Below, piece by piece: positions 12,322 through 14,839 of a stretch of DNA of 64,000 nucleotides (the stretch's first letter is position 1; each line of letters opens with the position of its first letter). The translations under genes and the position numbers were made by a program. Origin of the DNA: Eledone cirrhosa (Eukaryota); NCBI GenBank assembly GCA_964016885.1, contig OZ024744.1:89156001-89220000 (forward strand), read 5' to 3'. The notes below the pieces were generated by a model, which saw only the letters and a program-made list of their open reading frames with translations, was not told the DNA's origin and ran no database searches.

Positions 12322-12939
12322 AGTTTGAAGTTCTGACCGATCTGCGGAAAAAGTTTGTATTTTGAATTTTAAACGTGTCTAGGTACCAAGGCCTTTTGCC
12401 CATACGGTTTGTGAGTATTGATTTATTATTTTTTAGATCGTACAGGCAAACTATATGTATTTGAATTAAGATATTTCATTCTAACTATTTTATTAGTCAA
12501 TTGCAACTAAAACATGTAAATGTTTATCAAATATTAATTTAATTTAATTTATATATATATATATATATGGGAATGGGCGAAGACTTCAAGAACACCACCT
12601 TTGTCCGTTCCCTTGTAGTTTCAATTTGGGTTGCCTCGGGAACGTAACCTTTTTATGTAAGATGCTGTCTGATGAGATCATGGAACTGGGTACACGGAAT
12701 CACATGGCCACTGTCGTCATTAAAATATATATCAAGACCTTGTGAATAAAAGGATTTTAACATCTGAAACTACTTCGCATTTTCTTATTATATATATATA
12801 TATATATATATATATATATATATATATATATATATATATATATATATATATATATATATATATATATATATATATATGAAGGACGTAAAATAAGAAAATT
12901 TTAAAAAAAGATTTAAAAAATTAACTTACTAAAATTTTC

Positions 12940-13021
12940 ACTCCAACTAATTAGTTTCTGCAATGGGATAAAGGCAGTTACGTAATATAACCGTCGAGAA
13001 TTCATTGCGTCATCAGGGAGT
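12940..13021 (-). ncRNA. Type I hammerhead (inverted copy of 13502-13583)
   Basis: Reverse complement of the plus-strand motif with one substitution in the distal stem II hairpin. Confidence 0.8.
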
Positions 13022-13501
13022 GACAATTTTAGGGAGTGAAAATTTTAGTAAGTAAGTTAATTTTTTAAATCTTTTTTTAAAATTTTCTTATTTTACGTCC
13101 TTCATATTATTGTTCTGCATCCTCCTGCATTGAAACACCTAGGTACTATGACATAACTTATGTATTTGCTGGCATTAGCGTACATCTGTACGCATTTGTT
13201 AGTAGATATACTAAATTCTCTATATTTATCTCCAAATTATTTATTTGTTGAGCAAACCTGCCAAAACCACTACTAATTCATTGGTGTGGTAGTAGGCTTC
13301 TGTCATCTTACCATCCCACTCCTTCCGACTAGCCTCAGTGTCACGTGATTGATTCTTTAGAATCTGCCATTTGACCAGAGACAGCGAGCTTTTCAGTGCA
13401 TGGAATCCAGTCCCCGCTAGCTGTTCCATCTACCGAATTATTATTATTTTTATATGAGTCCCCGGTGTCCGCGCATTGCCTGGAGACTTAGCTGAGAATA
13501 G

Positions 13502-13583
13502 ACTCCCTGATGACGCAATGAATTCTCGACGGTTATATTACGTAACTGTCTTTATCCCATTGCAGAAACTAATTAGTTGGAGT
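13502..13583 (+). ncRNA. Type I hammerhead (predicted cleavage after 13578)
   Basis: ACTCC-CTGATGA-C-GCAATG..GACGGTTA/TAACTGTC..CATTGC-A-GAAAC-TAATTA-GTT-GGAGT. Confidence 0.85.
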
Positions 13584-14839
13584 GAAAATTTTAGTAAGTT
13601 AATTTTTTAAATCTTTTTTTTTAATTTTCTTATTTTACGTCCTTCATATTATTGTTCTGCATCCTCCTGCATTGAACCACCTAGGTACTATGACATAACT
13701 TATGTATTTGCTGGCATTAGCGTACATCTGTACGCATTTGTTAGTAGATATACTAAATTCTCTCTCTCTCTCTCTCTCTCTCTCTCTCTATATATATATA
13801 TATATATATATATATATATATATATATATATATATATATATATATATATATATATATATATATATATATATGACGAAATGCCTAAGGATTATTTGTTACA
13901 AACACAATTTTGTCAGGGCGAAACAGATTAAATCTTTAGTCTGTCCGAGAGATGAAATCGTTATTGATACGGTATGTATAGGAAATCCTGTATCCAACTG
14001 CATGTTTCAGTTTAAATATATAAAACATTTGTGGTAAAATCTACCCTCGTAATTTTGGACGCAGGATTTGGTGTGTTTATTTCTACATATATTACCATCG
14101 TGTTGTTGTCTGGCATGTTCGTATATTCGTATAGTACTGAACACGACAACAACACAACGATAACATAGACAACATAGAAATTAGAATAATATCTAAACAA
14201 AGAAATGACCCAGCAGATAGGCAAATCAGAGAGGCCAGTGAAATAGAACTTAGAAGGCCAAGGCTAAACAGAAAGAATGAATGGAATAACAACAACACCC
14301 AAACAAACAACACTGACCTAAGAGAAGTATAAATAAATAAATAGATAAATAAATAAATGCATACACAAGCACAATAACAACAAACACATATAAACACACA
14401 CTAGTAAAGATAGAATACATTAACCAATACACAGTCACCCAATCACAAACACACATCAAACAAAACACTATACACACACACGCAAACGCATGCGCAAAGA
14501 AGACAAAATAAAATAAACAAATAAATAAATATATAAACAGACTAAATAAAGATGGCGTAGAAAATACAATGCAACGGGAGGAAACAATAGCACCACTGAC
14601 GATGTTGCAGATGTGCAACGAAAGAACTTTGATAAACTATATATATGTGTTTGTGTCTATATTGTATCTGTATTTTTGACCGTTGGTCAGTCAATGGCAA
14701 CATTGAGGACCGAATAAATTAGATTTTGCTTGTTTATAAATATTATTTTACTACTAGAAATGCTAGTGAAGTTGTTTCACCCACTTCTTTAGAGAAAACA
14801 ACAACTTTCTTATATATTATTATAACATATTTGGTTGTA

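Follow-up and report, generated by a model that had tools for sequence, protein, structure and literature searches.

The window, i.e., the whole stretch of 64,000 nt that was analysed, harbors a non-coding element in the region 12878–13763 that is flanked on both sides by (TA)n tracts (Table 1). The element is made up of an inverted arm, 11 extra bases, and a sense arm that comprises one 546 nt unit and about 182 nt of the next unit. The alignment of the inverted arm extends over 12874–13021, which is the reverse complement of 13502–13649 with 98% identity. The longest ATG frames of the unit have 38 aa in sense and 62 aa in antisense direction, and no ORF for RT or GIY-YIG domains is present in the unit. 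The element region has a GC content of 0.31, and the RNA fold of the 546 nt unit gave z = -5.3. The (CT)n stretch of the right flank probably grew by slippage from the terminal CTCT.

Table 1. Features of the element in the window (positions of the window; the hammerhead and its cut sites are predicted).
Feature	Position	Strand	Basis
Left (TA)n target tract; final bases overlap the short terminus of the element	12789..12877	.	
Inverted arm, unit nt 470-546 and 1 to ~70; 3' terminus ('72 end') adjoins (TA)n	12878..13021	-	
5 nt microhomology, antisense of the 5' strand of stem I = unit nt 1-5	13017..13021	+	
Templated insertion; unit nt 6-16 copied, one mismatch ('filler' of the first-pass annotation)	13022..13032	+	
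Full 546 nt non-coding unit, from predicted cut site to next predicted cut site	13033..13578	+	
Type I hammerhead including distal stem I	13486..13599	+	Alignment of 27 copies
Partial second unit, ends at long 3' terminus ('186 end', ambiguous 13759-13763)	13579..13763	+	
Right (CT)n(TA)n tract	13764..13871	.	

Judged by its sequence, the element is an animal non-LTR retrozyme with a 546 nt unit, a predicted type I hammerhead, and insertion into (TA)n. It is non-coding and low in GC, has a type I hammerhead per unit, and occurs as dispersed short tandem repeats. These are the features by which the accessible text of two accounts (PMC7229834; bioRxiv 10.64898/2026.07.22.740005) defines animal non-LTR retrozymes at the sequence level, the tandem units described there being likewise non-coding and low in GC with one type I hammerhead each. 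The element is a fresh member of this already known class and not a novel class. Its unit of 546 nt compares to RNAs of 170–400 nt in the available part of PMC7229834 and lies within the range of 51–972 bp in that of bioRxiv 10.64898/2026.07.22.740005.

Several other repeats are present in the window. A further cluster of direct and inverted repeats, which are 78–84% alike, spans 14831–15939 and is probably a different element. The region 4310–9530 on the minus strand holds a two-ORF non-LTR retrotransposon (frames of 1151 aa and 619 aa), to which a decayed copy at 19810–21630 on the plus strand is related; judging by motifs, both may be L1/Tx1-like. At ~33700–39000 and 52000–64000 there are very long tracts of low complexity whose strand skew is extreme.

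The first-pass annotation had placed a hammerhead at 13502–13583 with predicted cleavage after U13578, and our analysis bore this out as a predicted type I hammerhead. Stem I is formed by 13502–13506 and 13579–13583, the core CUGAUGA lies at 13507–13513, and stem II consists of GCAAUG and CAUUGC. GAAA is followed by the stem III, which is a palindrome, and from this layout as a whole the cut is predicted after U13578. A predicted distal stem I (13486–13497/13589–13599), a helix with no two-sided change, extends the hammerhead past the limits given before. The window copy was aligned with 26 of 30 distinct variants. In this alignment of 27 copies 95.8% of the cells were paired and 32 cells had two-sided changes, a value as high as this being reached in 0 of 500 shuffles, although kinship among sequences can beat such shuffles. 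Compensatory changes across subfamilies were found in stem II, two pairs of which alternate among three or four pair types, and stem I is longer on both strands in one subfamily. In the Rfam search no family, the hammerhead included, reached its gathering score at any place in the 64,000 nt window. A conserved C-A mismatch at the base of stem II together with a monomeric stem III of 2 bp may make cleavage slow. Palindromic stem III has been tied to dimeric hammerhead activity in the consulted part of PMC4209133, and of nine Xenopus retrozyme dimers one was cleaved in vitro according to the available text of bioRxiv 10.64898/2026.07.22.740005.

Two further hammerhead-like motifs were noticed in the window. 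One at ~1472–1545 on the plus strand is of type I, unrelated to the motif of the retrozyme, and has a stem III that is palindromic. Two loci (L195, L206) of Penelope-like elements (PLEs) hold close relatives of it. The other lies at ~22750–22835 on the minus strand.

Many copies of the retrozyme are present in the 3.0 Gb genome. They have two fixed 3' ends, at unit nt ~72 and ~186, both of which adjoin (TA)n or (CT)n(TA)n. The exact pattern of the short ('72') terminus had at least 2,819 matches and that of the long ('186') terminus 267. Subfamily representatives are ~70% to 97% identical to the window unit, 68 natural full units of 500–579 nt were counted, and arrays of more than five units exist. 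A low-depth read-run contig with a second organism label differs at 2 positions from window 13361–13544, a part of the unit 184 nt long, and may stem from a relative or from contamination.

Copies for junction statistics were picked by their 3' ends, independently of the 5' junction, and an exact terminal pattern was required. The sample took the first places in contig order (C1–C4) and was drawn from 100 listed long-end matches, 20 of 61 further matches, and 90 loci from 100 listed short-end matches, of which 6 were already in the sample, 1 was merged, and 3 were left out. Two duplicates (L035, L042), a locus with a micro-duplication (L034), one with an N gap (L101), one strand of L216, and 8 partner arms without canonical terminus were dropped, and the window's own copy was excluded. 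The top-30 similarity matches were kept out of the statistics because a query starting at nt 1 favors copies that start near nt 1. The final sample comprised 205 insertions with 345 arms and 381 passes at the cut site.

An inverted partner arm was present in 146 of the 205 insertions, so that a partial tandem lies next to an inverted, 5'-truncated copy. In 138 of these 146 one short and one long terminus were paired head to head (72 with 186), and the two fixed termini are ~114 nt apart. Both ends lie in (TA)n in the window copy and in the top-scoring similarity loci, which had not been chosen for this. Microhomology overlap was seen at 93 of the 146 inversion junctions. In young copies the two arms of one insertion agreed at 409 of 421 polymorphic calls vs. 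62% for random pairs; this agreement alone is weak evidence for a common source, since subfamilies succeed one another in time. Private variants common to both arms numbered 11 of 136, with about two expected. As seen from the shared variants, both cDNAs were copied from the same source sequence, gene conversion between the arms being the alternative. Twin priming in the style of L1, where the first RT would be stopped by the second primer, was disfavored, as the junctions of 186-arms at positions 60–80 numbered 10 vs. 10.7 expected.

By analogy, the insertions are of Penelope-type anatomy. As described in the sections available of PMC8557442 and PMC11167929, EN+ Neptune-type PLEs likewise form a partial tandem with an inverted 5'-truncated copy and target (TA)n; their 'tail' is set by two internal RT start sites, with a hammerhead upstream of both. 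Unlike these elements, the retrozyme has no ORF, and its termini are ~114 nt apart vs. a tail of 30–40 nt. The protein of the anole Penelope element uses two internal RT start sites and cleaves both strands of the target (PMC11167929, available part). In vitro it showed no strand difference in the start site, according to the same text, whereas the retrozyme termini pair almost strictly short with long.

Most passes read through the predicted cut site (318 of 381), which implies that cleaved linear RNA was a minority template. Where both anchor motifs were intact, the only junctions counted, 277 of 280 internal crossings were seamless with a junction motif of exact length. The usual template was therefore an uncut multimer or a circle, and the exact length also disfavors end-to-end jumping between linear monomers as the main route of read-through. 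An array of more than five units (L018/L020; G000:C1 ~138488750-138492700) has variants that alternate between units. A pure monomer circle as the template does not fit this array, in which units differ and share variants in alternation; a dimeric or multimeric template or later local duplication is suggested. The window copy itself crosses the intact cut site 13578/13579, so its template was longer than a linear 546 nt monomer. One site crossed and a stop at the next would fit a multimer that was cut at the upstream hammerhead only.

We then compared the 5' junctions of the family to the expectation from a constant stop rate per base traversed. At the predicted cut and shortly after it, the broken ends of the copies are enriched about five-fold. 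At unit positions 545, 546, and 1 together, 15 junctions were found vs. 2.45 expected (P 5e-8); position 1 alone had 6 vs. 0.85, although events at nt 1 and at 545–546 (6, 5, and 4) are not separable. From +4 to +15, 48 junctions stood against 10.0 expected, and none fell on +2 and +3. Directly upstream of the cut (528–544) there were 8 vs. 14.1. Downstream, in a stretch of A/T runs where junction calls are imprecise (20–55), 20 vs. 17.1 were counted for 16–32 and 36 vs. 38.9 for the whole AT-rich control region 16–52; the AT-rich control region 400–422 was also flat (11 vs. 13.6). The excess was present in 72-arms and 186-arms alike and in first and later passes, and amounted to 2.4 to 6 fold in every subset tested. 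Seed arms only gave 7 vs. 1.5 (545–1) and 26 vs. 6.0 (+4 to +15), and removal of 7 doubtful calls and of 17 insertions with both arms near the site left 7 vs. 2.3 and 24 vs. 9.2. The proposed accumulation at this nucleotide of 5' junctions from other copies thus holds at the level of the family, but 282 of the 345 junctions lie elsewhere. We concluded that there is a real, sharp-edged excess of 5' ends in a minority of copies, most probably from cleaved templates. The likely reason why ends gather here is that some of the template RNAs, a minority, were already self-cleaved when they were copied into the genome.

A second, weaker hot spot was noticed at unit nt 500–511 (window 13532–13543; 19 vs. 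8.7 expected). It sits in the loop of a hairpin inserted in hammerhead loop II and has no explanation by cleavage.

The main rival to cleaved templates is stalling of the reverse transcriptase at the folded hammerhead on uncleaved or circular RNA, for which no cleaved template is needed. Such stalling would possibly involve the distal stem I, the loop 1 contact, and the three-way junction, maybe bound by protein or as a dimer through the stem III palindrome. Most of the excess, the 48 of 63 events at +4 to +15, does fall within the predicted extended stem I. Of all three-base windows the highest is not the cut site but +7 to +9 (24 events), where the palindrome AAAATTTT and the predicted loop 1 and distal stem I coincide. 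A halt before stem III would also yield ends at 545–546, which are indistinguishable from nt 1, and unprocessed RNA was the dominant substrate of the anole Penelope protein in the available part of PMC11167929. We nevertheless consider stalling unlikely as the cause. The longest predicted hairpin of the unit has no peak at its 3' base (169–185; 4 events in 2,343 nt at risk), and the 0.6-fold hazard directly upstream of the cut and the empty positions +2 and +3 form a sharp edge at the scissile bond. In addition, both arms stop at nt 1 in two insertions (L096, L149), where a single base separates them.

It is rather improbable that repair alone set the junctions through microhomology to (TA)n and to self-complementary motifs such as the stem I pentamer and AAAATTTT, which would make the match in the window copy coincidental. 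The inversion of the window copy does use the stem I pentamer, both arms lie at 545–15 in 15 of the 144 insertions with two arms, in many via the AAAATTTT palindrome, and elsewhere in the unit the opportunity for microhomology is weakly correlated with the hazard (rho 0.11). At 545–1, however, this opportunity is average, and the equally AT-rich or palindromic regions 16–52, 400–422, 184–215, and 528–544 (the stem III palindrome) show no excess, while a 2.4 to 3.1-fold excess was left once all insertions with both arms near the site had been removed. A transcription start site that happens to fall at the ribozyme junction is very improbable in spite of an E-box and a CCAAT-like motif in the unit, 240–300 nt upstream of nt 1: its position exactly on the scissile bond would be a coincidence, a cap signature is absent (none of the 6 exact junctions in the sample has G as the base preceding nt 1), and in the window copy this base belongs to a duplicated segment.

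The junction between the arms of the window copy was analysed at the level of single bases. As had been claimed, the first base of the direct repeat is 13033, which corresponds to 13579 and hence to the predicted cut, with a spacing of 546 nt. The 11 bases before it had been regarded as unrelated filler. This was refuted, since 13017–13032 matches 13033–13048 at 15 of 16 positions; this match marks the segment as a templated copy of the first 16 nt of the element itself. The inverted segment ends at stem I as described. Its stopping point is a microhomology join, as the inverted arm stops there because stem I supplies 5 nt of microhomology to unit nt 1–5. Read from the bases, the junction is a join through ribozyme-supplied microhomology, 16 copied nt, and then a restart at nt 1. 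This second start at nt 1 occurred without microhomology. Locus L122 has the same junction pattern as the window copy. Such templated insertions are a typical outcome of end joining by polymerase theta.

The further claims drawn from this junction fared less well. A single copy is insufficient as a genomic fossil of self-cleavage in vivo. A template with a ribozyme-made 5' end receives support from the family-level excess of ends, but for a minority only, and the window copy crosses one intact site. The monomer of ~546 nt is correct as the unit length, given the repeat spacing, but is not defined by this junction.

Animal retrozymes have been proposed to be mobilized by PLEs (PMC7229834; bioRxiv 10.64898/2026.07.22.740005, consulted parts), and we searched the genome for a candidate helper. 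The GIY-YIG search gave 10,596 candidates, of which 150 were scored. Many elements with long ORFs that have RT and GIY-YIG domains are present elsewhere in the genome. Of 7 proteins inspected, 4 have a Cys-rich linker as judged by pattern; going by the accessible text of PMC8557442, this suggests the Neptune or Nematis type. No pLTR common to the unit and an autonomous element was found in the 50 GIY-YIG loci examined of the 10,596 candidates, and the comparison of autonomous elements with the unit gave a score of 34 against a shuffled mean of 31, which shows no common sequence. A PLE ORF was near in 21 of 241 retrozyme-region loci, none of which was shown to share the pLTR of the unit. L177 and L198 were rejected as partner loci, as they merely hold neighboring retrozyme copies. 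The autonomous L202 family has the canonical offset between termini, 33 nt.

Among 59 junctions without a retrozyme partner, 3 directly adjoin PLE sequence. At L082 (G000:C2:103279286-103282317) a PLE arm is joined head to head with a retrozyme 186-arm. The PLE arm begins at the terminus of its own family and is 95–97% identical to an element with RT and GIY-YIG; on the far side, matching PLE sequence is not resumed. This one clear case suggests the identity of the helper. L147 and L212 also adjoin PLE sequence, and sequential insertions could explain both.

Other PLE-like sequences were noticed as well. The window contains a 450 aa frame at 45125–46477 on the plus strand with RT-like and GIY-YIG-like motifs and no Pfam match, which is probably a truncated Penelope-like element of another family. 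L193, L194, L197, and L204 represent another Neptune-like PLE family with a minimal hammerhead-like motif in the 3' repeat.

On balance we favor the following mechanism, in which a 546 nt retrozyme is inserted as head-to-head arms into (TA)n by a borrowed Penelope-type (Neptune-like) enzyme and the start of the sense arm derives from a self-cleaved template. Tandem units would be transcribed into multimeric RNA, and the hammerhead would cut some junctions and spare others, or monomers would circularize. A GIY-YIG/RT protein would then break (TA)n and prime cDNA from both target ends at unit nt ~72 and ~186 of the RNA, in line with the fixed termini and their pairing. Both cDNAs would copy one source sequence, as the shared variants indicate, which could be the same molecule or the same locus. 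Most cDNAs cross the cut site seamlessly, and about 1/6 of the passes end at it or not more than 15 nt after it; the piled-up ends would result from run-off at the cleaved 5' end followed by short trimming. Finally, the cDNA ends would be joined by microhomology in a repair step, which in the window copy used the stem I pentamer and included the 16 nt templated restart at nt 1.

In a broader and more tentative reading, the junction map would be a genomic record of the integration cycle of Penelope and retrozyme. A dimeric Neptune-type protein would prime both broken ends at two sites 114 nt apart, from one source RNA or from a pair of RNAs held by the palindromic stem III. Hammerhead cleavage in vivo would cap about 1/6 of the cDNA passes, and chimeras such as L082 would reveal the helper family despite the lack of common sequence with the retrozyme. 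That all these parts hold together is, in our estimate, somewhat doubtful.

The role of the hammerhead in Penelope-type retrotransposition was called unclear in the available text of PMC8557442. For the anole element, the sections consulted of PMC11167929 report that hammerhead mutants left insertion in vitro unaffected and that no RNA-seq reads started at the cut site. A coincidence of a ribozyme cut site with genomic 5' junctions is described for R2 with its HDV-like ribozyme (PMC3774820, in the part available). R2 differs in the ribozyme and in the element class, and its cut defines the full-length end, whereas the cut of the retrozyme accounts for a minority of the junctions and is mostly read through. 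In the parts consulted, the retrozyme accounts (PMC7229834; bioRxiv 10.64898/2026.07.22.740005) contain no inverted twin arms, fixed termini, or junction statistics, and the present family is known from genomic DNA alone. A literature search over titles, openings of abstracts, and accessible text found no comparable junction analysis for hammerhead retrozymes; supplements could hold examples.

So far, the integration of animal retrozymes has been argued from co-occurrence and pLTR similarity. The present family shows a retrozyme that integrates with the Penelope signature of two start sites and head-to-head arms. Genomic evidence at the population level also comes from this family that the integration pathway takes up ends at the hammerhead junction with measurable frequency. 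As the family has thousands of copies, the same junction count is applicable to any genome that bears retrozymes.
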